From a virus (lineage: Duplodnaviria; Heunggongvirae; Uroviricota; Caudoviricetes): 42,015 nt of DNA. The stretch lies in IMG/VR virus record IMGVR_UViG_2537562195_000009, one strand, 5' to 3'. The notes beneath the pieces were generated by a model. That model did no database searches and was not told where the DNA came from. It saw only the letters and a list, made by a program, of their open reading frames with translations. The position numbers were made by a program, and so were the translations under genes. The number at the start of each line of letters is the position of its first letter. The first letter of the stretch is position 1. Below are positions 14,265 through 40,915 of the stretch, piece by piece.

Positions 14265-14281
14265 TTTTGTGGAGAAAGTTG

Positions 14282-15734: not shown

Positions 15735-15757
15735 TCACCGTATTGCGTAATTTCTAA

Positions 15758-17745: not shown

Positions 17746-17748
17746 TTT

Positions 17749-19520: not shown

Positions 19521-19530
19521 AGTGCCGCAT

Positions 19531-20025
19531 ATGGCTGGAACGGCGGGGCGTTCCGGGCGTCGCCCCAAGCCAACGGCGCGCAAGGCGCTGGCCGGAAACC
19601 CCGGCAAGCGAGCCCTGAATAAAGATGAACCTGTTTTTACGCCCATCAAAGGTGTTGAGCCACCGGAGTGGTTCGCTGAAGAAGATCTCCCTCTTGCTAC
19701 GATCATGTGGCAACTGACAACTAAAGAACTCTGCGGTCAGGGCCTGCTGTGCGTGACTGACCTCGCGGTGCTTGAGCGGTGGTGCGTGGCCTACGAGTTC
19801 TGGCGACGTGCCGTGAAAAATATTGCCAGACAGGGCAACACCATCACCGGTGCAATGGGCGGTATGGTCAAAAATCCGGAGCTGACCGCCAAAAAAGAAC
19901 AGGAGTCCGAGATGAGCAGTACGGGGGCAATGCTCGGACTCGACCCCAGCAGCCGCCAGCGTCTGATTGGCCTGGCGGGGAAGAAGAAAGCCACTAACCC
20001 GTTTCTGAAAATCATCGAATCATGA
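19531..20025 (+). CDS. terminase small subunit (P27-family-like)
   Basis: 164 aa from ATG 19531 (AGGAG 9 nt upstream); precedes TerL with ATGA overlap. Confidence 0.7.
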
Positions 20026-23190: not shown

Positions 23191-23818
23191 TGTACCGCTG
23201 AGTCTGAAATCTGTCAGTGACTCCGGTGAGTTTGAAGGGTATGGCTCCGTCTTTGGTGTAAAGGACAGCCACGATGATGTGGTGATGTCCGGGGCATTTG
23301 CTGCTTCCCTGCGGGCGTGGAGTGACAGAAAAGCGTTACCTGCGCAGCTCTGGCAGCACCGCATGGATGAACCCATCGGTGTTTACACCGAAATGAAGGA
23401 AGACGATGTCGGGCTTTACGTCAGGGGACGGTTGCTTATTGATGATGATCCCCTCGCAAAACGCGCACATGCACACATGAAGGCCGGTTCGTTAACCGGT
23501 CTTTCTATTGGGTACGTCCTGAAAGACTGGGAATACGACCGGAGCAAAGAAGCCTTTCTGCTGAAAGAAATCGACCTCTGGGAAGTCAGTCTGGTGACGT
23601 TCCCGTCTAACGACGAGGCGCGGATCAGCGACGTCAAGAACGCACTGGCCCGCGGGGAAATCCCCGAAGAGAAAAAAATCGAAAGAGTCCTGCGTGATGT
23701 CGGACTCTCCCGTACCCAGGCCAAAGCATTCATGGCCGGGGGCTATGGCGCACTGTCCCTGCGCGACGCTGAGGATGTGGGCTCTGCACTGAATGTACTG
23801 AAAAATCTGAACTTCTAA
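23168..23818 (+). CDS. prohead maturation protease (HK97-type)
   Basis: Start at internal ATG (AAGGA RBS); VFGVKDSHDDVVMSGAF motif typical of S78/U35 prohead proteases. Confidence 0.8.
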   Translation: MQTKQRLDVPLSLKSVSDSGEFEGYGSVFGVKDSHDDVVMSGAFAASLRAWSDRKALPAQLWQHRMDEPIGVYTEMKEDDVGLYVRGRLLIDDDPLAKRAHAHMKAGSLTGLSIGYVLKDWEYDRSKEAFLLKEIDLWEVSLVTFPSNDEARISDVKNALARGEIPEEKKIERVLRDVGLSRTQAKAFMAGGYGALSLRDAEDVGSALNVLKNLNF

Positions 23819-23832
23819 TCAGGAGAAATACG

Positions 23833-25038
23833 ATGGCGGTTGATATTAAAGATGTCGAACAGGTCGCGCAGGAGCTGCAGCAGAAGTTTGACGACTTCAA
23901 AGCAAAGAACGACAAGCGCGTGGATGCGATTGAGCAGGAAAAAGGCAAACTTGCCGGGCAGGTGGAAACCCTGAACGGGAAACTCAGCGAGCTGGAAAAC
24001 CTCAAAAGCGATCTTGAAAAAGAGCTGCTTGAGCTGAAACGTCCGGCAGGTGGAGCGCAAAATAAACTGGCCACCGAGCATAAAGAGGCGTTTGTGGGCT
24101 TCCTGCGTAAAGGCCGTGAAGACGGTCTGCGCGATCTGGAGCGTAAGGCATTGCAGGTGGGCACCAATGAAGACGGTGGCTACGCCGTGCCGGAAGAACT
24201 GGATCGCAACATTCTTAACCTGCTGAAAGATGAAGTGGTGATGCGTCAGGAAGCCACGGTGATCACCGTTGGCGGTTCCGACTACAAAAAACTGGTGAAT
24301 CTGGGCGGTACGGCTTCCGGATGGGTGGGGGAAACGGATACGCGATCCCAGACTGCCACCTCCAGACTGGAGCTGATTGAACCTCTCATGGGGGAAATCT
24401 ACGGCAACCCGCAGGCTACCCAGAAAATGCTGGACGATGCCTTCTTCAACGTGGAGGCCTGGATCAACAGCGAGCTGGCAACCGAATTTGCCGAACAGGA
24501 AGAAATTGCCTTTACCTCAGGCGATGGTACCAAGAAGCCGAAAGGGTTCCTGGCGTATGAATCCACCGATGAAACCGATAAGGTCCGGGCGTTCGGCAAA
24601 CTTCAGCATATTGTATCCGGCGAAGCGACGGGGGTGACCGCAGACGCCATTATCAAACTGATTTACACGCTGCGAAAGGCACACCGCACCGGCGCGAAGT
24701 TCATGATGAACAACAACAGCCTGTTTGCCATCCGTTTGCTGAAAGACACCGAGGGTAACTATCTGTGGCGTCCGGGGCTGGAACTGGGGCAGCCGTCCTC
24801 TCTGGCGGGTTACGGTATCGCTGAAAACGAACAGATGCCGGATATCGCCGCTGATGCGAAAGCCATTGCATTTGGTAACTTCAAACGGGGTTACACCATC
24901 GTTGACCGTATCGGCACCCGCATTCTGCGCGACCCGTACACCAATAAACCGTTTGTCGGTTTTTATACCACCAAGCGCACCGGCGGGATGCTGGTCGATT
25001 CGCAGGCCATCAAACTGCTGAAGATTGCAGCGGCGTAA
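23833..25038 (+). CDS. major capsid protein (HK97 fold) with N-terminal coiled-coil delta domain
   Basis: 401 aa; AGGAGA RBS; N-terminal coiled coil (…KLSELENLKSDLEKELLELK…) then capsid-like body. Confidence 0.85.
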   Translation: MAVDIKDVEQVAQELQQKFDDFKAKNDKRVDAIEQEKGKLAGQVETLNGKLSELENLKSDLEKELLELKRPAGGAQNKLATEHKEAFVGFLRKGREDGLRDLERKALQVGTNEDGGYAVPEELDRNILNLLKDEVVMRQEATVITVGGSDYKKLVNLGGTASGWVGETDTRSQTATSRLELIEPLMGEIYGNPQATQKMLDDAFFNVEAWINSELATEFAEQEEIAFTSGDGTKKPKGFLAYESTDETDKVRAFGKLQHIVSGEATGVTADAIIKLIYTLRKAHRTGAKFMMNNNSLFAIRLLKDTEGNYLWRPGLELGQPSSLAGYGIAENEQMPDIAADAKAIAFGNFKRGYTIVDRIGTRILRDPYTNKPFVGFYTTKRTGGMLVDSQAIKLLKIAAA

Positions 25039-25045
25039 TCACTCA

Positions 25046-25066
25046 GGGGCGCGGAACCGCGCACCC
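25046..25066 (+). terminator. GC-rich stem-loop after the major capsid gene
   Basis: GGGGCGCGG-aa-CCGCGCaCCC hairpin just past the capsid stop; weak U-tract, possible attenuator or mRNA stabiliser. Confidence 0.35.
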
Positions 25067-25087
25067 TGTTCTGACGGGTGAAGAATC

Positions 25088-25288
25088 ATGATCCTGAAAC
25101 AAGATCTGAAATGGTCACCGGACGGTATGCGTGTTGAGGTCATTCGGGCCGGTGAGTATGACGACGGAGCGCTTCCTGCCCGGGTGCAGGAGATTGCACT
25201 TCAGGCCGGGTTAGCAGAGCGCGGAATCAGTGCAAAAAGCAGTAAAGCGGCAAAAGAGAAAAAAGCCACGACCAGTAAAGAGGGCTGA
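25088..25288 (+). CDS. hypothetical small head-module protein (66 aa)
   Basis: ORF between capsid and connector genes; weak RBS. Confidence 0.4.
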   Translation: MILKQDLKWSPDGMRVEVIRAGEYDDGALPARVQEIALQAGLAERGISAKSSKAAKEKKATTSKEG

Positions 25289-25290
25289 GT

Positions 25291-25614
25291 ATGCTTCTGA
25301 CAATGGAAGAGATTAAAGCCCAACTCCGGCTGGATGAGGATTTCGATACTGATGACCGCCATCTGCAACTGCTGGCATGTGCGGCACAAAAGCGGACGGA
25401 AACGTATCTGAACCGGAAGCTCTATGCACCGGATGAAACCATTCCGGACAGCGATCCGGACGGGCTGCACCTGCCGGATGATATTCGTCTGGGGATGCTG
25501 ATGCTTATCAGCCATTTTTACGAAAACCGCTCGTCGGTTACGGAAGTGGAGAAACTCGACATGCCGCAGAGTTTTGGCTGGCTTGTCGGCCCGTACAGGT
25601 ACTTTCCGCAATGA
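25291..25614 (+). CDS. head-tail connector (gp6-like)
   Basis: 107 aa; AAGAGGG RBS; position and size typical. Confidence 0.65.
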   Translation: MLLTMEEIKAQLRLDEDFDTDDRHLQLLACAAQKRTETYLNRKLYAPDETIPDSDPDGLHLPDDIRLGMLMLISHFYENRSSVTEVEKLDMPQSFGWLVGPYRYFPQ

Positions 25615-26021
25615 AAATTCGTCAGGCGCAGACCAGCGCAACCTACATTCTGCCGGACCCCGGTGAACTGAATAAACGCGTCCTGATCCGCCTGCGGGTG
25701 GATATGCCCGCGGATAACTTTGGCGTGGAGCCTCAATACCCGGTTACGTTCCGGACATGGGCGAAGGTTATCCAGACCAGTGCCACCACCTGGCAGGAAA
25801 CCGCGCAGACCGGGGACGCCATCACCCATTACATCACCATTCGTTACCGCCGGGGGATCACCGCTGATTATGAGGTGGTCTGCGGTGACAGTGTGTACCG
25901 GGTGAAACGTCAGCGCGATCTGAACGGGGCGCGGCGCTTTCTGCTGCTGGAGTGTACGGAGCTGGGCGAATGTAGGCAGAGTCACGGAGGCAACAATGAC
26001 GACTTCCTTTTTGCACGTTGA
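25611..26021 (+). CDS. head closure / head-tail adaptor protein
   Basis: 136 aa, ATGA overlap with upstream gene. Confidence 0.55.
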   Translation: MKIRQAQTSATYILPDPGELNKRVLIRLRVDMPADNFGVEPQYPVTFRTWAKVIQTSATTWQETAQTGDAITHYITIRYRRGITADYEVVCGDSVYRVKRQRDLNGARRFLLLECTELGECRQSHGGNNDDFLFAR

Positions 26022-26502
26022 TTTTCAGCAGCCCGCGGAGATGCGCTTTAACCGCGCCCGTGTCCGGCGGGCGTTTGTCACGATTGGTCAGCGTCATATG
26101 CGTGATGCCCGTCGGCTGGTGATGCGCCGTGCGCGGTCGGCACCGGGTGAAAACCCCGGTTATCAGACCGGACGCCTGGCTCGTTCGATTGGTTACATGG
26201 TACCCAGAGCCAGTAAACATCGCCCTGGTTTTATGGCACGTATAGCCCCTAACCAGCGTAATGGAGAGGGAAACCGCCGTATCACCGGTGATTTTTATCC
26301 GGCTTTTTTGTTCTATGGCGTGAGGCGAGGGGCAAAGCGTCGTCGCAGCCATCATCGTGGTGCATCCGGTGGCAGCGGCTGGCGACTGGCTCCACGTAAT
26401 AACTTCATGGTGGAAACGCTTGAAAAGAACCGCAGTTGGACACGCTATTTTCTGGCGCGGGAATTGCGTAAATCACTGAAGCCGGAGCGACGACACAGAT
26501 GA
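25996..26502 (+). CDS. HK97 gp10-like virion protein
   Basis: 168 aa, GGAGG RBS, basic C-terminus. Confidence 0.55.
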   Translation: MTTSFLHVDFQQPAEMRFNRARVRRAFVTIGQRHMRDARRLVMRRARSAPGENPGYQTGRLARSIGYMVPRASKHRPGFMARIAPNQRNGEGNRRITGDFYPAFLFYGVRRGAKRRRSHHRGASGGSGWRLAPRNNFMVETLEKNRSWTRYFLARELRKSLKPERRHR

Positions 26503-27059
26503 AACTGACGCCTGTTATTGCTGCGCTGCGTGCCCGCTGCCCGTATTTTGAAAACCGGGTGGCAGGCGCGGCACAGTTCAAAAATCTGCCGGAGGTCGGA
26601 AAGCTGAGACTCCCGGCGGCGTATGTGGTACCGGGGGATGATTCTCCGGGAGAAAACAAAAGCCAGACCGACTACTGGCAGGAGCTGAAAGAGGGCTTCT
26701 CCGTGGTTGTCATACTGAGTAACGGGCGTGATGAGCGCGGTCAGTTTGCCTCGTATGATGTGGTGGACGATGTCCGGCAGATGCTCTTTAAGGCCCTGCT
26801 GGGCTGGAACCCGGAAGCGTGCGGTAACCCGATTACCTATGACGGCGGCACGCTGCTGGATCTGAATCGTCATGAGCTGATTTATCAGTTCGATTTTTCG
26901 GTCATCAGCGAGCTGACTGAAGACGATACCCGCCAGCAGGATGATCTGAACAGTCTGGATGAACTGCAAACGCTGGCGATTGATGTTGATTATCTCGAGC
27001 CCGGTAACGGGCCTGACGGCGATATCGAACATCACACCGAAATAACCCTTCCTTCCTGA
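26499..27059 (+). CDS. tail completion/terminator-like protein (Mu-like tail module)
   Basis: 186 aa, ATGA overlap, immediately upstream of sheath module. Confidence 0.5.
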   Translation: MKLTPVIAALRARCPYFENRVAGAAQFKNLPEVGKLRLPAAYVVPGDDSPGENKSQTDYWQELKEGFSVVVILSNGRDERGQFASYDVVDDVRQMLFKALLGWNPEACGNPITYDGGTLLDLNRHELIYQFDFSVISELTEDDTRQQDDLNSLDELQTLAIDVDYLEPGNGPDGDIEHHTEITLPS

Positions 27060-27067
27060 GGATCCTC

Positions 27068-27238
27068 ATGTTTGTCAAACCTGTTAAAGGGCGGTCAGTT
27101 CCTGACCCTGCCCGCGGCGACCTTTTGCCCGCCGAAGGGCGAAATGTTGACGAGAACAACTACTGGCTGCGCCGTGAAGCAGCGGGTGATATCCGGCGCG
27201 TGAATAAAAAGGTGAACACCGATGACGATAAGCTTTAA
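27068..27238 (+). CDS. small conserved tail-module protein (56 aa) preceding the sheath
   Basis: ORF MFVKPVKGRSVPDPARGDLLPAEGRNVDENNYWLRREAAGDIRRVNKKVNTDDDKL overlapping the sheath start; below track cutoff. Confidence 0.4.
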   Translation: MFVKPVKGRSVPDPARGDLLPAEGRNVDENNYWLRREAAGDIRRVNKKVNTDDDKL

Positions 27239-28718
27239 CACCATTCCGTCGAATACGCTGGTTCCGCTGTTTTATGCGGAAATGGATAACCAGGCGGCGA
27301 ATACTGCACAGGACAGCGGAGCATCGCTGCTGATTGGTCATGCCAATAACGGTGCAGAGATTGTTGCCAACAGTCTGGTACTGATGCCGTCGGCAGACTA
27401 TGCACGCCAGATTTGTGGTGCGGGAAGTCAGCTGGCGCGTATGGTCGAGGCTTATCGCCAGACCGACCCGTTTGGCGAGCTGTATGTGATTGCCGTTCCT
27501 GAATCCACAGGCGCGGCGGCAACGGTTACGCTGACGGTGACCGGGGCGGCAACCGAAACCGGCACGGTGAATGTCTATGTGGGACGTACCCGCGTGCAGG
27601 CTCCGGTGACCAACGGCGATAACGTCACGACGATTGCCAGCAGTATCCAGGATGCCATCAATGCCGTTCCGGCCCTGCCGTTTACGGCTTCATCTTCGGC
27701 AGGCGTGGTCACACTGACCGCGCGTCATAAGGGGCTTTGCGGGAATGAAATTCCTGTCAGCCTCAATTACTACGGCTTTGGTGGGGGCGAAGTGCTGCCA
27801 GCGGGCGTACAGATTGCCGTGGCGACGGGGACCGCCGGAACGGGCTCTCCTGTTCTCACCGGCGCGGTGGCTGCAATGGCGGATGAGCCGTTTGATTATA
27901 TCGGCCTGCCGTTCAACGACACGGCCTCCGTTAACACGCTGGTGACCGAGATGAACGATACCAGCGGTCGCTGGAGCTATGCGCGTCAGCTGTATGGTCA
28001 TGTGTATACGGCAAAGATCGGCACGCTGTCAGAACTGGTGACCGCAGGTGACCAGTTTAACCAGCAGCACATTACCCTGGCGGGGTACGAAAAAGAGACC
28101 CAGACGCCTGCCGACGAACTGGCGGCAAGCCGTACCGCCCGCGCAGCGGTGTTTATTCGCAACGATCCGGCACGTCCCACGCAGACCGGTGAGCTGGTGG
28201 GTATGCTGCCTGCGCCGAAGGGGAAACGGTTCACGATGACCGAACAACAGACCCTGCTGTCTCATGGCGTGGCAACGGCGTATGTCGAAAGCGGGGTACT
28301 GCGCATTCAGCGTGATGTCACCACGTACAGGAAAAACGCTTACGGGGTTGCGGATAACAGCTACCTAGACAGTGAGACTCTGCATACCAGCGCGTATGTA
28401 CTGCGCAAACTGAAATCTGTCATTACCAGTAAGTACGGGCGTCACAAGCTTGCCAGTGACGGTACCCGCTTTGGTCCCGGTCAGGCGATTGTCACCCCGG
28501 CGGTGATCAAAGGGGAACTGCTGGCAACCTACCGTCAGCTTGAGCGTGCGGGGATCGTGGAAAACTACGAACTGTTTAAGCAGTACCTGGTTGTGGAGCG
28601 TGATGCCAGCGATCCGAACCGCCTGAACACGCTGTTCCCGCCTGACTATGTTAACCAGTTGCGTGTCTTTGCCGTGGTTAACCAGTTCCGTCTTCAGTAT
28701 TCAGAGGAGTCCGCATAA
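27222..28718 (+). CDS. contractile tail sheath protein
   Basis: 498 aa, followed by tube, chaperone with frameshift and tape measure genes. Confidence 0.85.
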   Translation: MTISFNTIPSNTLVPLFYAEMDNQAANTAQDSGASLLIGHANNGAEIVANSLVLMPSADYARQICGAGSQLARMVEAYRQTDPFGELYVIAVPESTGAAATVTLTVTGAATETGTVNVYVGRTRVQAPVTNGDNVTTIASSIQDAINAVPALPFTASSSAGVVTLTARHKGLCGNEIPVSLNYYGFGGGEVLPAGVQIAVATGTAGTGSPVLTGAVAAMADEPFDYIGLPFNDTASVNTLVTEMNDTSGRWSYARQLYGHVYTAKIGTLSELVTAGDQFNQQHITLAGYEKETQTPADELAASRTARAAVFIRNDPARPTQTGELVGMLPAPKGKRFTMTEQQTLLSHGVATAYVESGVLRIQRDVTTYRKNAYGVADNSYLDSETLHTSAYVLRKLKSVITSKYGRHKLASDGTRFGPGQAIVTPAVIKGELLATYRQLERAGIVENYELFKQYLVVERDASDPNRLNTLFPPDYVNQLRVFAVVNQFRLQYSEESA

Positions 28719-29074
28719 TGGCCCGTATCGGGGGAACCTGTTATTTCAAAATTGACGGTCAGCAGCTATCGCTGACCGGCGGCATTGAGGTGCCCATGAA
28801 CAGGACGGTCAATGATGACATCATCGGCCTGGACGGTTCAGTGGACCGCAAGGAAACTCACCGTGCGCCTTATGTCAAAGGGACCTTCAAGGTGCCGAAG
28901 AATTTTCCGGTGAGCAAAATCACCTCGTCTGATGAGATGACCATCACTGCCGAGCTGGCGAACGGTCAGGTCTATGTACTGTCGTCTGCCTGGCTGCACG
29001 GCGAAGCGAACCATAATGCCGAAGAAGGCACGGTCGATCTTGAGTTCCACGGTGAAGAAGGGGATTACCAGTAA
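28718..29074 (+). CDS. tail tube protein
   Basis: 118 aa, ATGA overlap with sheath. Confidence 0.75.
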   Translation: MARIGGTCYFKIDGQQLSLTGGIEVPMNRTVNDDIIGLDGSVDRKETHRAPYVKGTFKVPKNFPVSKITSSDEMTITAELANGQVYVLSSAWLHGEANHNAEEGTVDLEFHGEEGDYQ

Positions 29075-29343
29075 TGAAAGAGCTTGAGTTAAAGAAACCG
29101 ATTACCGCTCATGGCGAGACACTCTCCGTACTGGAGTTTGATGAGCCCACCGGGAAAGATGTCCGCGAGCTGGGGTATCCCTACCAGATGAATCAGGATG
29201 AGTCCGTCAGACTTCTGGCGCATGTGGTGTCGAAATACATTGTGCGGCTGGCGAAAGTGCCGCAAAGCTCTGTCGACCAGATGTCTCCGGCAGACCTGAA
29301 TGCAGCGGCGTGGCTTGTGGCTGGTTTTTTCCTCCAGGCCTGA
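29074..29343 (+). CDS. tail assembly chaperone (G-like)
   Basis: 89 aa; canonical slippery heptamer T_TTT_TTC near its 3' end. Confidence 0.75.
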   Translation: MKELELKKPITAHGETLSVLEFDEPTGKDVRELGYPYQMNQDESVRLLAHVVSKYIVRLAKVPQSSVDQMSPADLNAAAWLVAGFFLQA

Positions 29344-29498
29344 CGGCTGAATACCTCACTGATCGCTTCTTTGACTGCGCCAGCTACTGGCGCATTAATC
29401 CTTTCGAATTGCTGAATATGCCGATCAGTGAAATTCCCTTGCTGGTCAGTCAGGCAAACAGGATAGAGCAGGAGAAACGCACACATGGCGGAATTTGA
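29074..29498 (+). CDS. tail chaperone frameshift fusion (GT-like) via -1 ribosomal frameshift at 29325..29331
   Basis: -1 frame after T_TTT_TTC is open to 29498 (FFPPGLTAEYLTDRFFDCASYWRINPFELL…), ending inside the start of the tape measure gene. Confidence 0.65.
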
Positions 29499-31320
29499 GC
29501 TTAAGGCGTTGATCACCGGTGTCGACAGGCTTTCTCCCGCGCTGTCGAAAATGCAAAAGAAAATCCGGGGATTTAAACGCCAGGCGGAAGAAGCGTCACA
29601 GGGTGGGCTGGCGCTTGGTGGCGGACTGGCAGCGGGTCTGACGCTTTCCCTGAAATCTTATGCCGATCAGGAAAACGCCGCCACCGGGCTGAAGGTCGCC
29701 ATGATGGATGCGAACGGCGAGGTTGGAAAGAGCTTTCAGGACATCAATAAACTGGCTATTGGCCTGGGTAACCAGCTACCCGGTACAACGGCTGATTTCC
29801 AGAACATGATGCAGATGCTGGTGCGTCAGGGGATCCCGGCAGAAAACATTCTTGGCGGTGTGGGTAAAGCGACAGCTTATCTTGCGGTACAACTGAAAAA
29901 AACACCGGAAGCGGCTGCTGAGTTTGCTGCAAAGATGCAGGATGCTACCGGAACGGCGTCAGAAGACATGATGGGGCTGTTCGACACTATCCAGAAGGCG
30001 TTTTATCTGGGTGTTGACGATACCAACATGTTGTCCTTCTTCACTAAAACCAGCTCTGTTCTGAAGATGGTGAACAAGGACGGTCTTCAGGCTGCACAGA
30101 GCCTTGCCCCCATCAGCGTCATGATGGATCAGATGGGGATGAACGGGGAGTCGGCAGGTAACGCCCTGCGAAAAGTTATCCAGTCCGGATTAAGCGTTAA
30201 GAAAATCAGGGACGTCAATAAAATCATGGCCCGCCAGAAACTCGGGGTACAGCTCGATTTTACTGACGGCAAAGGAAGTTTTGGCGGTCTTGATAACATG
30301 TTCAGGCAACTGGCAAAGCTGCGAAAACTGACCGACGTTAAGCGAACAGGTGTACTTAAGGCAATATTTGGTGATGATGCCGAAACCCTTCAGGTGGTCA
30401 ATGCACTAATCGATAAAGGAAAGGATGGCTACGATCAGATCCAGCAGAAGATGAATAAACAGGCCAGCCTGAATAAACGTGTTCAGGCCCAGCTTGGTAC
30501 GCTGTCCAACCTGTGGGAGGCAATGACGGGGACCGCAACTAACGGCCTTGCGGCTATTGGCGGCGCATTTTCTGGTGACGCCAAAAATATCACGCAATGG
30601 CTGGGGGAGTTAGGGGAAAAATTCACGAAGTTTGCGGATGAAAATCCCCGGGTTATTCGCGGCGTCGTCGGGCTTGCTGCCGGTCTTGCGATTCTGAAAC
30701 TGGGATTGATGGGCGTTGGCGGTGCCATCAGTATTGTCAGCAGGATCATGTCGATGACGCCGATTGGAATGATTGCGACGGCGATAGCCCTGGCTGCGGG
30801 ATTAATTATCACTAACTGGGATGTTGTCGGACCTTATTTCAAGAAGCTCTGGGAAACCATTGGTCCTTATTTTGAGGCTGGCTGGGAACTTCTGAAGAAG
30901 GTTTTTGCCTGGTCGCCGCTGGGGATGGTAATCAATAACTGGGGACCGGTTGTTAAGTGGTTTCAGGATATGTGGGACAAACTGAAGCCAATTATTGCGT
31001 GGTTTACCGACAGTTCCGGTGACACGGTCGATGCCATTAACTCTGCGCAGTGGGGCGCGGGTGCTTATGATGCTTATGGGACGGGAATACCGGCACGGGG
31101 ATACACACCTTATCAGGCGGTAGATCCGGCTCAGTCAAACAACGCCTCCGGTGCCACAGGCCCGAATCCCTTCATGATTAACAAAGCTTCTGCGCCAAAA
31201 GTTGATGGTGAGATCAAGGTCTCTTTTGTGAATTCGCCTCCGGGTATGCGGGTTATGGAAACGCGATCCAGCGGTTTTGATGTCAGCCATGATGTTGGCT
31301 ATACGCGCTTTGGCAGGTAA
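29485..31320 (+). CDS. tail tape measure protein
   Basis: 611 aa; Gly/Ala-rich helical and hydrophobic segments; position after chaperone pair. Confidence 0.85.
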   Translation: MAEFELKALITGVDRLSPALSKMQKKIRGFKRQAEEASQGGLALGGGLAAGLTLSLKSYADQENAATGLKVAMMDANGEVGKSFQDINKLAIGLGNQLPGTTADFQNMMQMLVRQGIPAENILGGVGKATAYLAVQLKKTPEAAAEFAAKMQDATGTASEDMMGLFDTIQKAFYLGVDDTNMLSFFTKTSSVLKMVNKDGLQAAQSLAPISVMMDQMGMNGESAGNALRKVIQSGLSVKKIRDVNKIMARQKLGVQLDFTDGKGSFGGLDNMFRQLAKLRKLTDVKRTGVLKAIFGDDAETLQVVNALIDKGKDGYDQIQQKMNKQASLNKRVQAQLGTLSNLWEAMTGTATNGLAAIGGAFSGDAKNITQWLGELGEKFTKFADENPRVIRGVVGLAAGLAILKLGLMGVGGAISIVSRIMSMTPIGMIATAIALAAGLIITNWDVVGPYFKKLWETIGPYFEAGWELLKKVFAWSPLGMVINNWGPVVKWFQDMWDKLKPIIAWFTDSSGDTVDAINSAQWGAGAYDAYGTGIPARGYTPYQAVDPAQSNNASGATGPNPFMINKASAPKVDGEIKVSFVNSPPGMRVMETRSSGFDVSHDVGYTRFGR

Positions 31321-31380
31321 TGAAAAATTAATCTGTTAATGAGTCCCACTCCGGTGGGATTTTTTATGTACGGAGTTTAT

Positions 31381-32709
31381 ATGACGTGGAAAGACAGACT
31401 TCAGGACGCGTCATTTCGCGGTGTGCCGTTTAAGGTTGAAGAAGAAAGTGCGGGAACCGGTCGTCGTGTGGAAACGCACGAATACCCGAACCGCGACAAA
31501 CCCTATACCGAAGACCTGGGGAAAATCACTTTCCGCCCGTCCATCACAGCTTATGTGGTGGGAGATGACTGCTTTGACCAGCGCGATCGCCTGATTGACG
31601 CGCTGAATAAACCCGGTCCCGGCACGCTTGTCCATCCGACTTACGGTGAGCTGAAAGTCTGTGTTGACGGGGAAGTTCGGGTCAGCACATCGAAGAGTGA
31701 AGGGCGTATTGTCCGCTTTGACCTGAAGTTTGTCGAAGCGGGAGAACTCTCTTACCCCACTTCAGGTGCGGCGACGGCGCAGACGCTGATGTCATCCTGT
31801 TCTGCACTGGATGACTGCATCAGTGACAGCTTCAGTGGTTTCAGTATCGATGGCGTGGCAGATTTTGTGCAGAACGACGTCGTCGGTAATGCCAGCACAA
31901 TGCTTGGGTATGTTTCTGATGCGATGAAAGTGGTGGATTCTGCCGTATCGGATGCCGCCAGGCTGTTGCAGGGGGATATCTCGGTACTTCTGCCGCCACC
32001 ATCGTCAGGCAAAAATTTCGTTGAGCAGGTGCAGAAAATGTGGCGTACCGGGAAACGCCTTTATGGTAACGCCAGCGACCTGGTCACCATGATCAAAACG
32101 CTTTCCGGTGTCAGCCTCGGCAGCGATCTGCAACCGCGCGGCGTCTGGAAAACGGACAGTAAAACTACCGCCACGGCGACGCAGCAGCGTAACGTGGTTG
32201 CCAGCACCCTTCGTACGACCGCAATCAGCGAAGCGGCGTATGCCGTCACACGATTGCCTGCGCCCACAACTTCCGCGGTGATGCAGAATGCCACAGTAGG
32301 GCAGTCAACAACACCCGCGCAGAGCACCGGCTGGCCTTCTGTCACGCATCCGGCACTGAACAATGCACCGGCGGTGAAAAACACGGTTGACCTGCCAACG
32401 TGGGAAGAACTGACCGACATTCGCGACACACTGAATACGGCAATTGATAAGGAGTTGTCCCGTACAACCAGTGATGCGCTGTTTCTGGCGCTGCGCCGGG
32501 TGAAAGCAGATCTGAATGCGGATATCAACACGCGCCTTGAACAGTCTGCACGGATCATTCAGCGCACGCCGGATGAGGTTTTACCCGCGCTGGTGCTGGC
32601 GGCGACCTGGTTTGATAACGCGGCGCGTGACGCGGACATTATCCGGCGTAATGCCATTACGCATCCCGGCTTTGTGCCGGTGATCCCTCTGAAGGTGCCA
32701 GTGCAATGA
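31381..32709 (+). CDS. Mu gpN-like DNA circulation protein
   Basis: About 442 aa from ATG 31381 (ACGGAG RBS); first gene of baseplate block. Confidence 0.65.
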   Translation: MTWKDRLQDASFRGVPFKVEEESAGTGRRVETHEYPNRDKPYTEDLGKITFRPSITAYVVGDDCFDQRDRLIDALNKPGPGTLVHPTYGELKVCVDGEVRVSTSKSEGRIVRFDLKFVEAGELSYPTSGAATAQTLMSSCSALDDCISDSFSGFSIDGVADFVQNDVVGNASTMLGYVSDAMKVVDSAVSDAARLLQGDISVLLPPPSSGKNFVEQVQKMWRTGKRLYGNASDLVTMIKTLSGVSLGSDLQPRGVWKTDSKTTATATQQRNVVASTLRTTAISEAAYAVTRLPAPTTSAVMQNATVGQSTTPAQSTGWPSVTHPALNNAPAVKNTVDLPTWEELTDIRDTLNTAIDKELSRTTSDALFLALRRVKADLNADINTRLEQSARIIQRTPDEVLPALVLAATWFDNAARDADIIRRNAITHPGFVPVIPLKVPVQ

Positions 32710-33785
32710 ACGACAATGTCACGCTACGGGTAAATGGCCGGGAGTGGAATGGCTGGACATCGGTGCGCATCGGTGCCGGTATTGAACGGCTGGCGCGGGA
32801 TTTCAGTGTGGAGATCACTCGCCAGTGGCCGGGAGATGAGGGTATCACCACGCTTCAGCCGCGCATTAAAAACGGTTCAAAAGTGGAAGTGCTGATTGGT
32901 GATGAGCTGGTGATCACCGGCTGGGTGGAGGCGACTCCCGTTCGTTACGATGCCCGTTCGGTCAGCACCGGTATTGCCGGACGTAGTCTGACGGCTGACC
33001 TGATTGACTGTGCAGCCGAACCGACACAGTTTAACGGACGCTCGCTGGTGCAGATTGCGCAGGCGCTTGCTGCGCCTTTCGGCATTGAGGTGGTGAACAG
33101 CGGTGCGCCGTCGGGTGTTATTCCTGATGTTCAGCCTGATCACGGTGAAACGGTGATTGAGGTAATCAACAAAATACTCGGTCAGCAGCAGGCGCTGGCT
33201 TACGACGACCCGCACGGCAGGCTGGTGATTGGCGGTATTGGCTCAACGCGGGCACATACCGCGCTGGTACTTGGGGAAAACATCCTTTCCTGTGATACGG
33301 AGAAGAGTATCCGGGAGCGGTTTTCTGTTTACCAGGTGGCGGGGCAGCGTGCCGGAAACGACGATGATTTCGGTGAGGCCACCACCACCGCGCTGCGGGC
33401 CCGCACAGAGGACGCATTTATTGCCCGTTACCGTCCGATGTATATCAGGCAGACAGGGCAGGCCACGGGGGCAGGCTGTATTGCGCGTGCTGACTTTGAA
33501 GCCCGGCAACGGGCGGCGCGGACGGATGAAACCACCTATTTGGTGCAGGGCTGGCGACAGGGTAACGGTACGCTGTGGCAGCCCAACCAGCGGGTGATTG
33601 TCTTCGATCCGGTCTGTGGTTTCGACAATACCGAACTGCTTGTCTCGGAAGTCACGTTTACTCAGGACCAGAACGGCACCCTGACGGAAATCTGTGTCGG
33701 CCCGCCTGATGCTTATCTGCCTGAACCCGAAGCCCCCGGCGCGCGGAAAAAGAAAAAAGCCAGAGTACAGGAGGACCCGTTCTGA
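32706..33785 (+). CDS. Mu gpP-like baseplate hub protein
   Basis: 359 aa, ATGA overlap, gene order. Confidence 0.65.
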   Translation: MNDNVTLRVNGREWNGWTSVRIGAGIERLARDFSVEITRQWPGDEGITTLQPRIKNGSKVEVLIGDELVITGWVEATPVRYDARSVSTGIAGRSLTADLIDCAAEPTQFNGRSLVQIAQALAAPFGIEVVNSGAPSGVIPDVQPDHGETVIEVINKILGQQQALAYDDPHGRLVIGGIGSTRAHTALVLGENILSCDTEKSIRERFSVYQVAGQRAGNDDDFGEATTTALRARTEDAFIARYRPMYIRQTGQATGAGCIARADFEARQRAARTDETTYLVQGWRQGNGTLWQPNQRVIVFDPVCGFDNTELLVSEVTFTQDQNGTLTEICVGPPDAYLPEPEAPGARKKKKARVQEDPF

Positions 33786-34333
33786 TGAGGACGATTGAAG
33801 CCATGCAGCGACAACTTCTCGGCCTGATTGGACGGGCCGTGGTGAAAAGCATCAGTGCCGCCACGAAATGTCAGACCGTGGATGTGTCCCTGATTGCCGG
33901 TGAACCCAAAGCCGGGGTTGAACATCTTGAACCCTACGGTTTTACCGCAAGGGCAAACAGCGGTGCGGAAGCGGTGGTGTTGTTTCCGGATGGCGACCGT
34001 TCTCATGCGGTGGTTGTTACGGTGTCGGACCGGCGCTACCGCCTGAAAGGGCTGCAGACGGGTGAGGTGGCTGTCTATGACGATCAGGGGCAGTCCGTGA
34101 CGCTGACCCGGGAGGGGATCGTGGTGGACGGTGCAGGGAAAACGATCACGTTTCGCAATGCACCTGAAGCACGTTTTGAAATGGACCTGGAAGTGACAGG
34201 ACAGGTGAAAGACCTGTGCGACTCCAGCGGCACCACCATGTCAGCGATGCGGCTTGCCTATAACGGCCATCGTCACAGAGAGAACGGTCAGGGCAGTAAC
34301 ACCGACAAACCTGATAAAGCGATGGAGGCATGA
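33785..34333 (+). CDS. baseplate spike/assembly protein (Mu gp45-like)
   Basis: 182 aa, gene order and size. Confidence 0.6.
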   Translation: MRTIEAMQRQLLGLIGRAVVKSISAATKCQTVDVSLIAGEPKAGVEHLEPYGFTARANSGAEAVVLFPDGDRSHAVVVTVSDRRYRLKGLQTGEVAVYDDQGQSVTLTREGIVVDGAGKTITFRNAPEARFEMDLEVTGQVKDLCDSSGTTMSAMRLAYNGHRHRENGQGSNTDKPDKAMEA

Positions 34334-34758
34334 TGGAACTGTGGCTGACGGTGAACGGTAAACGCACCTGCGCCAGCGCACCGCTGGATCCGCTGACCCG
34401 CGCCGTGGTGATTTCCCTGTTTACCTGGCGGCGGGCGGAGCCTGATGACAACGCCGACGTCCCGATGGGATGGTGGGGGGATACCTGGCCTGCGGTACAG
34501 AATGACCGTTACGGCTCCCGACTGTGGCTGCTTCAGCGCAGCAAACTGACCAATCAGCTGGTGCAGACGGTAAGGGGGTATATCCGCGAATGCCTGCAAT
34601 GGATGATTGATGATGGCGTGGTGTCCCGTATTGATCTGGATATCCGCCGCACCGGGATTAATGAACTGGGTAACAGTATCACTCTCTGGCGTCGTGACGG
34701 ACCGGTAATGATTTCTTTTGATGATCTGTGGAGTGCGATAACGCATGGCGGACAGTGA
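34330..34758 (+). CDS. baseplate protein (Mu gp46 / gpW-like)
   Basis: 142 aa, gene order and size. Confidence 0.6.
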   Translation: MMELWLTVNGKRTCASAPLDPLTRAVVISLFTWRRAEPDDNADVPMGWWGDTWPAVQNDRYGSRLWLLQRSKLTNQLVQTVRGYIRECLQWMIDDGVVSRIDLDIRRTGINELGNSITLWRRDGPVMISFDDLWSAITHGGQ

Positions 34759-35803
34759 ATTTCAGCGCCCGACGCTGGCAGAAAATATCAGTATGCTCCG
34801 TAACGATTTATTCGCCAGGCTGGACGTCAGCGACACGCTCCGGCGCATGGATGAAGACGTGCGGGCAAAGGTGTATGCGGCGGCGCTGCATACGGTTTAC
34901 GGTTACATCGATTATCTGGCAATGAACATGCTGCCTGACCTGTGCGATGAGTCCTGGCTGGCGCGACATGCTGCGATGAAACGGTGTCCGCGCAAGGGGG
35001 CCACGGCTGCCAGCGGGTATATGCGCTGGGAAGGTGTCAGCGATGGCCTGAAGGTGACCGCCGGGAGTGTTATTCAGCGCGATGACCTGGTTCAGTACAC
35101 GGCAACTGCCGATGCAACCAGCTCCGGTGGTGTCCTGCGCGTGCCGATCGCCTGCTCAAGTTCAGGCGCGGTCGGTAACGCTGACGACGGTACGTCATTA
35201 ATCCTGGTCACGCCGGTGAATGGTCTGCCGTCTTCCGGTGTGGCTGACACCCTGACAGGCGGATTTGATACTGAAGATCTGGAAACGTGGCGCGCCCGCA
35301 TCATTGAGCGGTATTACTGGACGCCGCAGGGCGGGGCTGACGTGGACTATGTCGTCTGGGCTAAAGAAGTGCCCGGCATTACCCGCGCATGGACATACCG
35401 TCACTGGATGGGAACGGGAACTGTCGGTGTGATGATTGCCAGCAGTGACCTGATTAATCCCATTCCGGAAGAATCAACGGAAACGGCGGCAAGACAACAC
35501 ATTGAGCCACTGGCCCCGGTGGCAGGCTCTGATTTGTATGTATTCAGGCCGGTGGCGCATAAAGTGGATTTTCATATCCGCGTGACGCCGGACACACCGG
35601 AAATACGGGCTGCCATCACCGCAGAGTTGCGTTCGTTCCTGCTGCGTGATGGTTATCCTCAGGGAGAACTGAAGGTGTCGCGTATCAGTGAGGCGATTTC
35701 CGGTGCGAACGGGGAATACAGCCATCAGTTGCTTGCCCCGGCGGACAATATCTCCATTGCAAAAAATGAACTGGCGGTTCTGGGGACGATTTCATGGACG
35801 TGA
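34745..35803 (+). CDS. baseplate J-like protein (Mu gp47-like)
   Basis: 352 aa, gene order and size. Confidence 0.7.
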
Positions 35804-36378
35804 CAAACGATGATTACATCCGCCTGTTATCGGCACTGTTGCCGCCCGGTCCTGCATGGTCAGCCAGCGATCCGGCGATTGCCGGTGCGGCACCTTCATT
35901 AACCCGCGTTCATCAGCGTGCGGATGCCCTGATGCGGGAGCTGGATCCGCGCACCACCACTGAACTGATAAACCGCTGGGAGCGTCTGTGCGGTCTGCCG
36001 GATGAATGTATTCCCGCAGGGACACAGACCCTTCGCCAGCGTCAGCAACGGCTGGATGCGAAGGTTAATCTGGCGGGCGGCATCAATGAGGATTTTTACC
36101 TTGCACAGCTTGCTGCCCTGGGCAGACCAGACGCTACTATCACGCGATACGATAAAAGCACGTTCACCTGCTCATCGGCCTGTACTGACGCAGTGAATGC
36201 GCCGGAATGGCGGTATTACTGGCAGGTCAACATGCCAGCCGCCACCAACACCACCTGGATGACATGTGGCGATCCCTGTGATTCCGCGCTGCGCTTCTGG
36301 GGGGACACCGTTGTCGAGTGCGTGCTTAACAAACTCTGCCCTTCGCATACCTACGTAATTTTTAAATATCCGGAGTAA
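35794..36378 (+). CDS. tail protein (Mu gp48 / YmfQ-like)
   Basis: 194 aa, precedes the tail fibre. Confidence 0.6.
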
Positions 36379-36381
36379 TCC

Positions 36382-37164
36382 ATGCATCGTATAGACACGA
36401 AAACCGCGCAGAAGGATAAGTTCGGCGCGGGTAAGAACGGTTTTACCCGTGGTAACCCCCAGACCGGCACACCTGCCACCGATCTGGATGATGACTACTT
36501 TGACATGTTGCAGGAAGAACTTTGTAGCGTGGTGGAGGCCTCCGGTGCCAGCCTGGAGAAAGGGCGGCATGACCAGCTACTTACCGCGCTTCGCGCGCTG
36601 CTGTTAAGCCGCAAGAATCCGTTTGGCGATATCAAATCGGATGGCACGGTGAAAACGGCTCTCGAAAACCTTGGTTTGGGAGAAGGCTCAGCATTACCCG
36701 TTGGTGTGCCTGTTCCGTGGCCTTCAGCCACTCCGCCAACAGGCTGGCTGAAATGCAACGGAGCAGCTTTTTCTGCTGAAGAATACCCGGAACTGGCAAA
36801 GGCTTATCCGACAAATAAATTACCTGATTTACGCGGTGAGTTTATTCGTGGCTGGGATGACGGACGTGGAGTGGATAACGGAAGGGGATTATTAACGCTT
36901 CAGGACGGTGCGATTGTCAGTCATAACCACTATTGGGGAATCTGGACTTCACGAACTAACGACCAGACTCTGGGAAGTTTTACAGGCACCACGATTTTAA
37001 AACAAATCACGCCCCTGTCTCCGGCCATTGACTTCGATAATTACCCAATTCCCAACCCGGCTATTACAGAGGGTGGTGTTGTTGCGGCAACGACTAAACC
37101 TGCAGGTGCGAATGAAACACGCCCACGAAATGTCGCTTTTAACTATATTGTGAGGGCTGCATAA
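36382..37164 (+). CDS. tail fibre protein; constant N-terminus plus variable C-terminus inside an invertible segment
   Basis: 260 aa; crossover site lies in codons ENLGLGEGS (36661..36690); C-terminal GEFIRG...[13 protein letters not shown] collar-like motif. Confidence 0.8.
36662..36686. repeat. invertase crossover site, left (gix/pix-like)
   Basis: TCGAAAACCTTGGTTTGGGAGAAGG; inverted copy at 38516..38539 shares the TTGGTTTGGGAGAAG core in the same codon phase. Confidence 0.75.
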
Positions 37165-37766
37165 TGAATAACGCAGAATTAAACAGTGAATTAATTGCCA
37201 CTATGGCAGGAGAAATTACTGTTTATAACTTTGACGTCATGAGTCGGGAGTATATTTCAGCTTCAACTGAATATCTTGCTGTTGGTGTCGGCATTCCGGC
37301 ATATTCCTGTTTAGATGCTCCAGGCACCTACAAAGCTGGTTATGCAATCTGCCGCTCTGCAGATTTTAACTCATGGGAATATGTACCAGACCATCGCGGT
37401 GAAATCGTCTATAACACCGAAACGGGAGACGCCAAAGAAATCACAACTCCGGGTGATTACCCCGAAAAAACAACCACTATCGCCCCGTTAACGCCATACG
37501 ATAAATGGGATGGTGAGAAATGGGTGACGGATACTGAGACACAGCATAGCGCCGCAGTAGACGCGGCAGAAGCACAACGTCAGTCACTGATTGATACTGC
37601 AATGGCTTCCATTAGTCTGATTCAACTGAAATTGCAGGCCGGGCGGAAGCTGATGCAGGCAGAGACCACCCGACTTAACACTGTGCTGGATTACATTGAC
37701 GCGGTGACGGCAACAGATACCAGTACCGCGCCGGATGTCATCTGGCCTGAACTGCCGGAGGAGTAG
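37164..37766 (+). CDS. tail fibre assembly protein (Tfa)
   Basis: 200 aa; conserved Tfa C-terminus (…LDYIDAVTATDTSTAPDVIWPELP). Confidence 0.8.
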   Translation: MNNAELNSELIATMAGEITVYNFDVMSREYISASTEYLAVGVGIPAYSCLDAPGTYKAGYAICRSADFNSWEYVPDHRGEIVYNTETGDAKEITTPGDYPEKTTTIAPLTPYDKWDGEKWVTDTETQHSAAVDAAEAQRQSLIDTAMASISLIQLKLQAGRKLMQAETTRLNTVLDYIDAVTATDTSTAPDVIWPELPEE

Positions 37767-38169
37767 GCCATTCAATATCTGGCGCACTGGAAGTATCGAC
37801 CAGTTCCAGTGCGTCCAGATAATCCAGCCACAAATTATATTGCGCCAGTTCCTCACCTTTCAGACGACCAATCGCCGCTTTACCAGGCCATTGTTTACTG
37901 TTCATGTATTCGTTGGCCTGATTAACTAATCGCTGTTTATTTGATTCAGCGATTGAGATTAATTCTTCGCTGGTAAGTGGTGGCGCATCCTGCCATGCTG
38001 GAAAACCATTTTTATCTGAACCAAGTATTTTACCATCAGGCCATGCAACTCCTGCGAACTCAGAATAAATAGTAAAGTTTATTTTCGTAGCGTTCTCAGG
38101 AATGGTTTGGCTATCTGGTGAAATATAAAATCCCGAATCAGAGGGATTAAAATAATATGTCTTTTCCAT
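37738..38169 (-). CDS. alternative tail fibre assembly protein (Tfa'), inverted orientation
   Basis: 143 aa; same Tfa C-terminal motif (…LDYLDALELVDTSSAPDIEWPTPP). Confidence 0.8.
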   Translation of the reverse strand: MEKTYYFNPSDSGFYISPDSQTIPENATKINFTIYSEFAGVAWPDGKILGSDKNGFPAWQDAPPLTSEELISIAESNKQRLVNQANEYMNSKQWPGKAAIGRLKGEELAQYNLWLDYLDALELVDTSSAPDIEWPTPPAVQAR

Positions 38170-38171
38170 AG

Positions 38172-38527
38172 TTAATACCCCACAGCCATCCAGTAAATTG
38201 AATTTGTTGTAGCAGAAGTGTAAGTAAATCTGATTTTAGTTCTGTTGGTACTTCCAATATCAAAGCCCACAGAACGGGCAGAAGGATCATTAGTTGAAAT
38301 AAGAGCGTTTACCGAACGACAAGCAGCAGGGAAAGCTACAGGTAATGTTATATCAACTGTTCCAACACTTCCTCCGGTTGGTGAGACAGAAAAACTCCCC
38401 CATTGAATAATCATCCCCCCAGGTAATTTCTGGTATCCATTGGCGGTCAATGAGTTACCAAAGCTGTTCATATCCGGTACCTGATTTTCTCCTGTCCCCA
38501 CATTCCTCTTTGCCGCTTCTCCCAAAC
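38172..38527 (-). CDS. alternative tail fibre C-terminal cassette, expressed only after inversion
   Basis: Minus-strand ORF whose 5' end contains the inverted crossover core (…NVGLGEAAKR…) in frame with the constant fibre N-terminus. Confidence 0.7.
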
Positions 38528-38539
38528 CAACGTTTATGA
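38516..38539. repeat. invertase crossover site, right (inverted copy)
   Basis: Reverse complement TCATAAACGTTGGTTTGGGAGAAG matches the left site at about 21 of 24 positions. Confidence 0.75.
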
Positions 38540-38596
38540 AAATGCAGAAATAACGAGCAAATGGCATCATTCCTGCTTTTGTCAGGGAGATCTACC

Positions 38597-39151
38597 ATGC
38601 TTATTGGCTATGTACGTGTGTCAACAAATGACCAGAACACAGATCTACAACGTAATGCGCTGAACTGTGCAGGATGCGAGCTGATTTTTGAAGACAAGAT
38701 AAGCGGTACAAAGTCCGAAAGGCCGGGACTGAAAAAACTGCTCAGGACATTATCGGCAGGTGATACGCTGGTGGTCTGGAAACTGGACCGACTGGGGCGC
38801 AGTATGCGGCATCTTGTCGTGCTGGTGGAGGAGTTGCGCGAACGAGGCATCAACTTTCGTAGTCTGACGGATTCAATTGATACCAGTACCCCAATGGGGC
38901 GCTTTTTCTTTCATGTGATGGGTGCCCTGGCTGAAATGGAGCGTGAACTGATTGTTGAAAGAACAAAAGCTGGACTGGAAGCTGCTCGCGCACAGGGACG
39001 AATTGGTGGACGTCGTCCCAAACTTACACCAGAACAATGGGAACAGGCCGGACGATTAATTGCATCAGGAGTTCCTCGCCAGAAGGTGGCGATTATCTAT
39101 GATGTTGGTGTGTCAACTTTGTATAAGAGGTTTCCTGCAGGGGATAAATAA
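38597..39151 (+). CDS. pin: serine DNA invertase (Pin/Gin/Hin family)
   Basis: Start at internal ATG (MLIGYVRVSTNDQNTDLQ); resolvase catalytic N-terminus plus C-terminal HTH; adjacent to invertible fibre segment. Confidence 0.9.
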   Translation: MLIGYVRVSTNDQNTDLQRNALNCAGCELIFEDKISGTKSERPGLKKLLRTLSAGDTLVVWKLDRLGRSMRHLVVLVEELRERGINFRSLTDSIDTSTPMGRFFFHVMGALAEMERELIVERTKAGLEAARAQGRIGGRRPKLTPEQWEQAGRLIASGVPRQKVAIIYDVGVSTLYKRFPAGDK

Positions 39152-39257
39152 AGTTAAAGACACTTTGTGTACAAAAGAAAGTAAAACAACAGCAACTTGT
39201 TGCAATTTTATCAATAAAAGTAGTATTGTCGTGAAAAATTGATTAAAGATTAATATT

Positions 39258-40091
39258 ATGCATGTTTTTGATAATAATGGAATTGAACTGAAAGCTGAGT
39301 GTTCGATAGGTGAAGAGGATGGTGTTTATGGTCTAATCCTTGAGTCGTGGGGGCCGGGTGACAGAAACAAAGATTACAATATCGCTCTTGATTATATCAT
39401 TGAACGGTTGGTTGATTCTGGTGTATCCCAAGTCGTAGTATATCTGGCGTCATCATCAGTCAGAAAACATATGCATTCTTTGGATGAAAGAAAAATCCAT
39501 CCTGGTGAATATTTTACTTTGATTGGTAATAGCCCCCGCGATATACGCTTGAAGATGTGTGGTTATCAGGCTTATTTTAGTCGTACGGGGAGAAAGGAAA
39601 TTCCTTCCGGCAATAGAACGAAACGAATATTGATAAATGTTCCAGGTATTTATAGTGACAGTTTTTGGGCGTCTATAATACGTGGAGAACTATCAGAGCT
39701 TTCACAGCCTACAGATGATGAATCGCTTCTGAATATGAGGGTTAGTAAATTAATTAAGAAAACGTTGAGTCAACCCGAGGGCTCTAGGAAACCAGTTGAG
39801 GTAGAAAGACTACAAAAAGTTTATGTCCGAGACCCGATGGTAAAAGCTTGGATTTTACAGCAAAGTAAAGGTATATGTGAAAACTGTGGTAAAAATGCTC
39901 CGTTTTATTTAAATGATGGAAACCCATATTTGGAAGTGCATCATGTAATTCCCCTGTCTTCAGGTGGTGCTGATACAACAGATAACTGTGTTGCCCTTTG
40001 TCCGAATTGCCATAGAGAATTGCACTATAGTAAAAATGCAAAAGAACTAATCGAGATGCTTTACGTTAATATAAACCGATTACAGAAATAA
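39258..40091 (+). CDS. mcrA: McrA-like HNH nuclease (Type IV modification-dependent restriction)
   Basis: 277 aa, low GC; C-terminal HNH motif (CENCG…EVHHVIPLSSGG…NCVALCPNCH); pin-mcrA-icd-fragment order matches the e14 right end as recalled. Confidence 0.7.
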   Translation: MHVFDNNGIELKAECSIGEEDGVYGLILESWGPGDRNKDYNIALDYIIERLVDSGVSQVVVYLASSSVRKHMHSLDERKIHPGEYFTLIGNSPRDIRLKMCGYQAYFSRTGRKEIPSGNRTKRILINVPGIYSDSFWASIIRGELSELSQPTDDESLLNMRVSKLIKKTLSQPEGSRKPVEVERLQKVYVRDPMVKAWILQQSKGICENCGKNAPFYLNDGNPYLEVHHVIPLSSGGADTTDNCVALCPNCHRELHYSKNAKELIEMLYVNINRLQK

Positions 40092-40324
40092 AATTATTTA
40101 TTAAAGTCACATTTAAGACGTAATACCCTACAGGGTAAAATTTTTCTCTGATCTTAACTTCTGCAAATGTTAACTGCTATTTTTATGCTAAAAATGGTTA
40201 TCAAAACTCAAAAACACATGTTTATAATCAATGAGTTATAGAAATGCTAAGGGCTAATGAGTTATATGCAAATTAGTAAAATTATGTTGCTATGTCAAAT
40301 AGTTACGATTTAGTCATCTAACTA

Positions 40325-40489
40325 ATGTTACGCCATATGGGCTGGACTGAAGCCGCAGACCTGATTGTTAAAGGTATGGAAGGCGCAATCAATGCGAAGA
40401 CCGTAACCTATGACTTCGAGCGTCTGATGGAAGGCGCTAAACTGCTGAAATGTTCAGAATTTGGTGATGCGATCATCAAGAACATGTAA
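40325..40489 (+). pseudogene. icdC: isocitrate dehydrogenase 3' fragment (icdC-like), prophage right attachment junction
   Basis: Translates as [54 protein letters not shown], matching the recalled Icd C-terminus; an in-frame stop lies immediately upstream, so no icd body. Confidence 0.8.
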
Positions 40490-40511
40490 TCACTACATGT
40501 GTTTAATATTG

Positions 40512-40544
40512 CAACGGGCGTATAACACGCCCGTTGTTTTATTT
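40512..40544 (+). terminator. rho-independent terminator after the icd fragment
   Basis: CAACGGGCG-tataaca-CGCCCGTTG stem then TTTTATTT. Confidence 0.8.
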
Positions 40545-40591: not shown

Positions 40592-40915
40592 TTACTTGAG
40601 CCCATATGGGCATATTTTTATAATGCAACTATTATGCAAACATTTATTTGTTATTTTGCTTTCTCCTGGAGGACACTCTTGACTGCTTTTGAGTAGACTC
40701 CATAAATCCTTGTTGAATGGTGCGATGTTATAAATAGTAATAGGATATTCTTTATCTTTAAGGATAATTCCAGATTTAACCGGTGTAAATATACTGCCAG
40801 GAGGGAGAAATATAGTAGATTGATACCAGATGATCATTTTCATATTACCCCATATGGCTGAAAAAGATATGCCGCATGAAGGTTGAATTATCGTGTCAAT
40901 TACTATCCACTTCAT
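40592..40915 (-). CDS. iraM: IraM-like anti-adaptor protein (host gene)
   Basis: 107-aa AT-rich ORF matching recalled IraM (MKWIVIDT…ICPYGLK); downstream of icdC as in E. coli K-12. Confidence 0.6.

Follow-up and report, generated by a model that had tools for sequence, protein, structure and literature searches.

We identified the open reading frame (ORF) at positions 39258–40091 (plus strand, 277 codons plus stop, ATG start) of the window, i.e. of the whole 42,015-nt stretch of viral DNA analysed here, as mcrA. We are highly confident that its product is EcoKMcrA, a modification-dependent restriction endonuclease of Type IV, and that the gene is lysogenic-conversion cargo of an e14-type prophage, which has icd as its integration site and carries mcrA at its attR end. 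mcrA is a well-known gene in an already sequenced context, and the finding is correct but ordinary.

Identification of mcrA and of its product

The initial annotation had proposed an McrA-type enzyme. Direct comparison with the e14 region of MG1655 bore this out, as all 277 residues are shared with Escherichia coli K-12 McrA (b1159), i.e. 100% amino acid identity instead of the low identity that would have pointed elsewhere. The two genes differ at 2 of 834 nt, at gene positions 528 and 681, and both differences are synonymous. A phmmer search of the PDB with the mcrA product returned EcoKMcrA (6GHC) as the best match (E = 2.9e-190 over residues 1–277), with 276 of the 277 residues in common. 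The sole mismatch is K196 in the window protein, which is a Glu in the crystal. Since the 6GHC crystals are those of the K196E variant of EcoKMcrA (PMC6182155), the window protein has the wild-type residue at this position. Furthermore, the PADLOC model mREase_IV, which describes Type IV methyl-directed restriction, matches McrA over its entire length (1–277 of 277, E = 6.5e-203). No feature of the sequence speaks against this identification.

Both domains of the enzyme were recognized. The N-terminal NEco specificity domain, with boundaries as defined in PMC7145662, corresponds to residues 1–143 (39258–39686, plus strand) and matches the NEco crystal chains 6R64, 6T21 and 6T22 (E = 2.5e-94). 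The C-terminal HNH (beta-beta-alpha-Me) nuclease core was detected by Pfam HNH (PF01844) on residues 207–256 (39876–40025, plus strand; E = 3.5e-15). A residue check found H228, H229, N243, H252 and H256, as well as C207, C210, C248 and C251, all in place in the window protein. In EcoKMcrA, H228 is a metal ligand, H229 the general base, and the four Cys residues form a structural zinc site (PMC6182155).

The description of the gene product as a low-GC, 277-residue protein with a C-terminal HNH motif was likewise accurate, down to the coordinates of the ORF. The GC content of mcrA is 0.384, compared with 0.511 for window positions 1–38560 and 0.557 for the structural module. RefSeq labels the identical gene mcrA in many genomes, that of E. 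coli RM10466 among them. An antisense ORF of 85 codons found inside mcrA (39784–40041) was without supporting evidence and was taken as spurious.

Flanking sequences and the attR junction

On its 5' side, mcrA is preceded by pinE (38597–39151, plus strand), coding for a serine DNA invertase with Resolvase and HTH_7 domains. All 184 residues of PinE are common to the window and RM10466 proteins, and K-12 pinE occupies the equivalent place. The pinE–mcrA intergenic region (39152–39257, plus strand) presumably contains the promoter and the ribosome-binding region of mcrA. Positions 39100–39300 are base-for-base equal to K-12, and the 158 nt 5' of the mcrA start are identical. A consensus promoter scan gave only weak sigma-70-like matches near mcrA, at 39231–39259 and 39250–39278. 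The 10 matches around the gene do not exceed the number in shuffled sequence (7.2 ± 2.4), so that the scan is uninformative, and no strong sigma-70 promoter is recognizable upstream.

On the 3' side, a consensus scan revealed, 33 nt past the mcrA stop codon, a short hairpin with a T-rich run behind it (40124–40137, plus strand), which is a candidate terminator. It is located in the 233-nt, AT-rich spacer (GC 0.27) between mcrA and icdC. At gathering thresholds, Rfam gave no match anywhere in the window, and thus no known RNA element was found near mcrA.

The icdC fragment (40325–40489, plus strand; Iso_dh match) is the former 3' end of icd, now displaced, and its 5' edge marks the attR junction. 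Its 54 codons cover positions 363–416 of the 416 residues of NADP-isocitrate dehydrogenase (NADP-IDH). When the window was compared with K-12 attR and with attL from both K-12 and RM10466, the phage-side sequence was found to end at 40324 and the icd homology to begin at 40325, which places the prophage/chromosome junction there. The first ~60 nt of the RM10466 attL copy are the same as those of the attR copy of the window, as expected for the crossover region. The original icd gene has a terminator-like hairpin (40511–40537, plus strand), made of an 11-pair stem and a T run, which is kept in all four aligned att copies.

The first chromosomal gene past the prophage is iraM (40592–40915, minus strand; NCBIfam anti-adapter IraM, E = 3.3e-51), followed by ycgX. 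The order pinE–mcrA–icdC–iraM–ycgX is that of the right end of e14 as annotated in K-12, so that the pin–mcrA–icdC arrangement of e14, initially proposed for the window, holds. The position of icdC at attR next to iraM corresponds to integration in icd with replacement of the icd 3' end by a phage-borne copy; attL, which is outside the window, was seen in the RM10466 locus only.

The carrier prophage

The prophage body spans positions 1–40324, with its left limit just downstream of intE and its right limit at attR, and is of the e14/SfV type, as established by transfer of the RM10466 annotation at 99.9–100% identity. The window begins 275 nt beyond the intE end, with attL, icd and the left-end cargo outside of it. 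Positions 1–275 correspond to the intergenic region upstream of a gene for a 775-residue TPR protein in RM10466 (locus L003, 4207–6534). The recombination module of an e14-type prophage is represented by intE (276–1403) and xisE (1387–1629). According to the RefSeq annotation of the RM10466 counterpart, both the lambdoid early region and the morphogenesis module are complete. The early genes code for IntE, XisE, cI-like and cro-like regulators, a replication protein, an N6-adenine methyltransferase, RusA, KilA-N and DUF968 proteins and Q. The late genes code for holin, lysozyme, Rz/Rz1, an HNH protein, the small and large terminase subunits, portal, protease, capsid and connectors. They are followed by the genes for sheath, tube, tape measure, Mu-like baseplate and tail fibres, and then by pinE and mcrA. 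The HNH endonuclease gene of the late region (19054–19401), which is unrelated to mcrA, directly precedes that of the P27-type small terminase, which is the usual arrangement for packaging-associated HNH genes.

Mapping of the translated RM10466 frames to the window showed 53 of the 54 prophage frames to be full length at 99–100% identity, the exception being DUF968. A 2.7-kb ISCro1 element (IS66 family; 11428–14125, minus strand), delimited by its breakpoints and an 8-bp target duplication, interrupts this gene just upstream of the antiterminator gene Q, leaving codons 1–286 of 329 and removing the last 43. The copy is 99.9% identical to annotated ISCro1 copies. Its transposase is present as two ORFs (12021–13028 and 11458–12159) with the IS66 domains divided between them, which suggests a frameshift. 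Eight otherwise near-identical prophages are without the ISCro1 insertion. The chromosome that best matches the window is that of strain 4, and a plasmid of this strain carries an intact, 99.9% identical ISCro1. Q retains its own reading frame (14282–14626).

The view of the carrier as a full-length prophage, put forward from the sequence at the outset, thus stands for its gene content, including two blocks of 13.5 and 12.7 kb missing in K-12 e14, but not for the DUF968 gene disrupted by ISCro1. From its predicted genes, the carrier is best described as a full-content myovirus prophage of the SfV/e14 type, and this description is largely right, with full length understood in terms of genes and not as implying inducibility.

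Two other regions of the prophage deserve mention. The Pin-invertible tail-fibre segment (36666–38535) is bounded by 20-nt inverted repeats (36666–36685 and 38516–38535) and includes tail-fibre and assembly domains. As determined by BLAST, its orientation is opposite to that in K-12 and RM10466. The present inversion state joins a 260-residue fibre ORF (36382–37164) to a TfaE-like assembly gene (37164–37766). A three-gene cargo block with a GC content of 0.33 is found between Q and the holin gene (14643–17082, minus strand). It codes for a 363-residue MBL-fold protein (Pfam Lactamase_B) with weak PADLOC matches to RTasMBL and LmuA, and for two other proteins that gave no confident family match. 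The block could be an uncharacterized defence or moron module. Stx phages carry toxin genes in the slot that corresponds to this position.

Distribution in E. coli genomes

A survey of 5426 complete E. coli genomes gave mcrA matches in 340, of which 331 reached a coverage of at least 80%, and the gene is chromosomal in every case. The deletion junction specific to K-12 e14 was detected in 283 genomes. By subtraction, roughly 48 mcrA-positive genomes would thus harbour another, mostly longer, form. Using positions 25000–40400 of the window as a query, i.e. the head–tail region through mcrA, 88–100% coverage was obtained in more than 30 genomes among the 60 matches listed. The window is 99.9–100% identical to the prophage of RM10466 and of seven other complete genomes. 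The phage collection contains one record with mcrA, ON470584.1, which is a predicted prophage region still holding icd, rluE and mnmA. The full-length prophage context of mcrA is therefore already public, in dozens of complete E. coli genomes where the gene is already annotated as mcrA.

A cargo slot downstream of the invertase gene

The tail and pin module was matched in 395 genomes, and in many genomes the match extends only to the end of pinE (position 14153 of the 25000–40400 query). In the two such prophages that we inspected, both at other chromosomal sites, the gene that follows pinE codes for a LEM-3-like GIY-YIG protein (locus L005, 3877–4650; locus L006, 3450–6634), with a gene for an ATP-dependent nuclease next to it in L006. 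In SfV, gtrV–gtrB–gtrA are found between the tail-fibre genes and int, which is the corresponding position. Given that related prophages and SfV fill the slot with other genes, mcrA appears to occupy an exchangeable, att-proximal cargo position, and its low GC content fits such a position. Going further, we tentatively propose, at somewhat below even probability, that the window represents a natural, possibly still inducible e14, i.e. a complete myovirus of the SfV family that carries mcrA from one E. coli strain to another by lysogenizing them at icd, and whose post-invertase position is open to the exchange of nuclease or defence genes.

Expected activity of McrA

EcoKMcrA dimerizes through its C-terminal HNH domains to form one DNA-binding and cleavage site, and each NEco domain separately reads 5mC or 5hmC within the sequence Y(5mC)GR, with no base flipping (PMC6182155; PMC7145662). 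Cleavage requires the HNH active site (H228, H229, H252 and H256) and, in vitro, Mn2+ (PMC6182155). In cells, EcoKMcrA restricts plasmids methylated by M.HpaII (CpG type) and the non-glucosylated hmC phage T4gt, but neither wild-type T4, which contains glucosyl-hmC, nor unmodified lambda (PMC6182155). The in vitro activity of EcoKMcrA is weak and not strictly methyl-dependent (PMC6182155), so that the mechanism proposed for cells is somewhat provisional, in K-12 as well. Methylation by the host Dcm enzyme (CCWGG) is compatible with McrA (PMC3874153). As McrA senses modified cytosine, the prophage's own N6-adenine methyltransferase should create no McrA substrates.

Loss of e14 causes a McrA-minus phenotype in K-12 (PMC4444293). 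Since the protein and the upstream sequences are identical to those of K-12, the same restriction activity is predicted for the window strain. mcrA is presumably expressed in the lysogen, and any benefit to the host or the prophage is likewise presumed.

Alternative interpretations

Phages often carry HNH genes, and a second one is present in this prophage next to the small terminase gene (19054–19401). The ORF might thus be taken for a phage housekeeping endonuclease of the packaging-associated or homing type. We rejected this identity based on the full-length identity to McrA, the protein of 19054–19401 being only 33% identical over 70 residues. The complete NEco sensor domain and the location of mcrA outside the packaging module, adjoining attR in low-GC cargo DNA, also argue against it, so that its probability is negligible. 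An intact mcrA might nevertheless confer no restriction in this strain, for example by being silenced in the background of this prophage or host, or redundant with McrBC and Mrr, and the gene would then be a passenger instead of an active defence determinant. The lack of a recognizable strong promoter upstream of mcrA is in line with this idea, as is the dose dependence of the phenotype, plasmid-borne catalytic mutants being able to restrict at high expression (PMC6182155). However, K-12 shares the protein, the upstream sequence and the same weak promoter picture, and it is phenotypically McrA+. Its single-copy, chromosomal e14 mcrA makes cells McrA+/RglA+ in the classical sense, and excision of e14 abolishes this phenotype (PMC4444293). 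In addition, the alleles differ by synonymous changes only, consistent with purifying selection. We therefore regard a passenger role as improbable and retain an active McrA as our interpretation.

Whether the carrier is a functional phage is a more balanced question. The prophage could be locked in the chromosome in spite of its full gene content, which would make mcrA as immobile as in K-12 e14, and we give this about an even chance. The ISCro1 element in DUF968, immediately upstream of Q, could be polar on late-gene activation, attL is beyond the window, and ON470584.1, the only record of the phage collection to include mcrA, is a prophage prediction with host genes and not the genome of an isolated virion. 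On the other hand, the other 53 frames compared with RM10466 are intact, the uncharacterized DUF968 gene loses no more than its final 43 codons (of 329) to the insertion while the Q frame is kept, and even K-12 e14 still excises (PMC4444293).

Significance

McrA is a textbook restriction enzyme with solved structures, and the gene of the window adds little in this respect. The modest value of the window is rather in its clean picture of what K-12 e14 has lost by internal deletion, about 13.5 kb at one place and 12.7 kb at another. It also indicates that mcrA in wild strains usually travels on a full-content phage, and it places the gene in a cargo slot filled by other nuclease genes in related phages. 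For strain engineering, the window strain is predicted to restrict CpG-methylated DNA.

Comparison with K-12 e14 and other relatives

The closest characterized system is EcoKMcrA itself (K-12 mcrA, b1159, formerly rglA), with the same protein and the same 158-nt upstream sequence, and with mcrA flanked by pinE and icdC in both cases. The carriers differ in size, 15.2 kb in K-12 versus about 40 kb for the window prophage. They have in common the icd site with its 3' duplication, intE/xisE (88% nucleotide identity), the ymfL–ymfM region, terminase, ymfR, ymfQ, the tail-fibre/pin module and mcrA. BLAST comparison of the window with K-12 e14 revealed collinear segments separated by two large gaps, of about 13.5 and 12.7 kb. 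K-12 e14 lacks window positions 7138–20619, which include most of the replication genes, the nin-like region, Q, cargo, lysis genes, the small terminase gene and the 5' end of the terminase gene, and positions 22356–35016, from portal through baseplate. The chimeric ymfN of K-12, in which a replication protein is fused to terminase, and the beeE/jayE remnants sit at the two gap points. From these alignments, the two intervals define the deletions that gave rise to the ymfN chimera and the beeE/jayE remnants. The slot between icd and intE at the left end also differs, with ymfD–ymfE–lit in K-12, which are not represented in the window, versus the TPR-protein gene in RM10466. In ON470584.1, this slot contains genes for a DUF262 protein and a hypothetical protein; it is thus also variable among relatives.

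Full-length e14-like prophages are found in RM10466 (NZ_CP028381.1), strain 4 (NZ_CP045209.1), 00-3076 and FWSEC0010, as well as in the GenBank record ON470584.1 ('vB_EcoM-689R6'). They share 99.9–100% nucleotide identity over the whole window, save for the IS and the inversion state, and mcrA is annotated in each of them. More distant relatives are the Shigella serotype-converting phages SfV, SfII, SfIV and SfI, in which the Mu-like tail module and the HK97-like head module are the same and the early regions are related. The parts shared with SfV, SfII and SfIV are about 95–96% identical at the nucleotide level. The SfV-type cargo is gtrA–gtrB–gtrV, for O-antigen glucosylation, where the window has pin–mcrA, and SfI integrates at tRNA-thrW, whereas the window prophage is at icd (PMC3636060). 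A long e14 prophage, that of strain S88, has already been described as closely related to SfV and SfI (PMC3636060).

Among other HNH Type IV enzymes, ScoMcrA (ScoA3McrA, PDB 5ZMM) has a homologous C-terminal HNH domain (E = 7.2e-11 over McrA residues 183–275). Nevertheless, the N-terminal sensor domains of ScoMcrA and of the other enzymes of this type are unrelated to that of McrA, and ScoMcrA additionally targets phosphorothioated DNA (PMC3874153).
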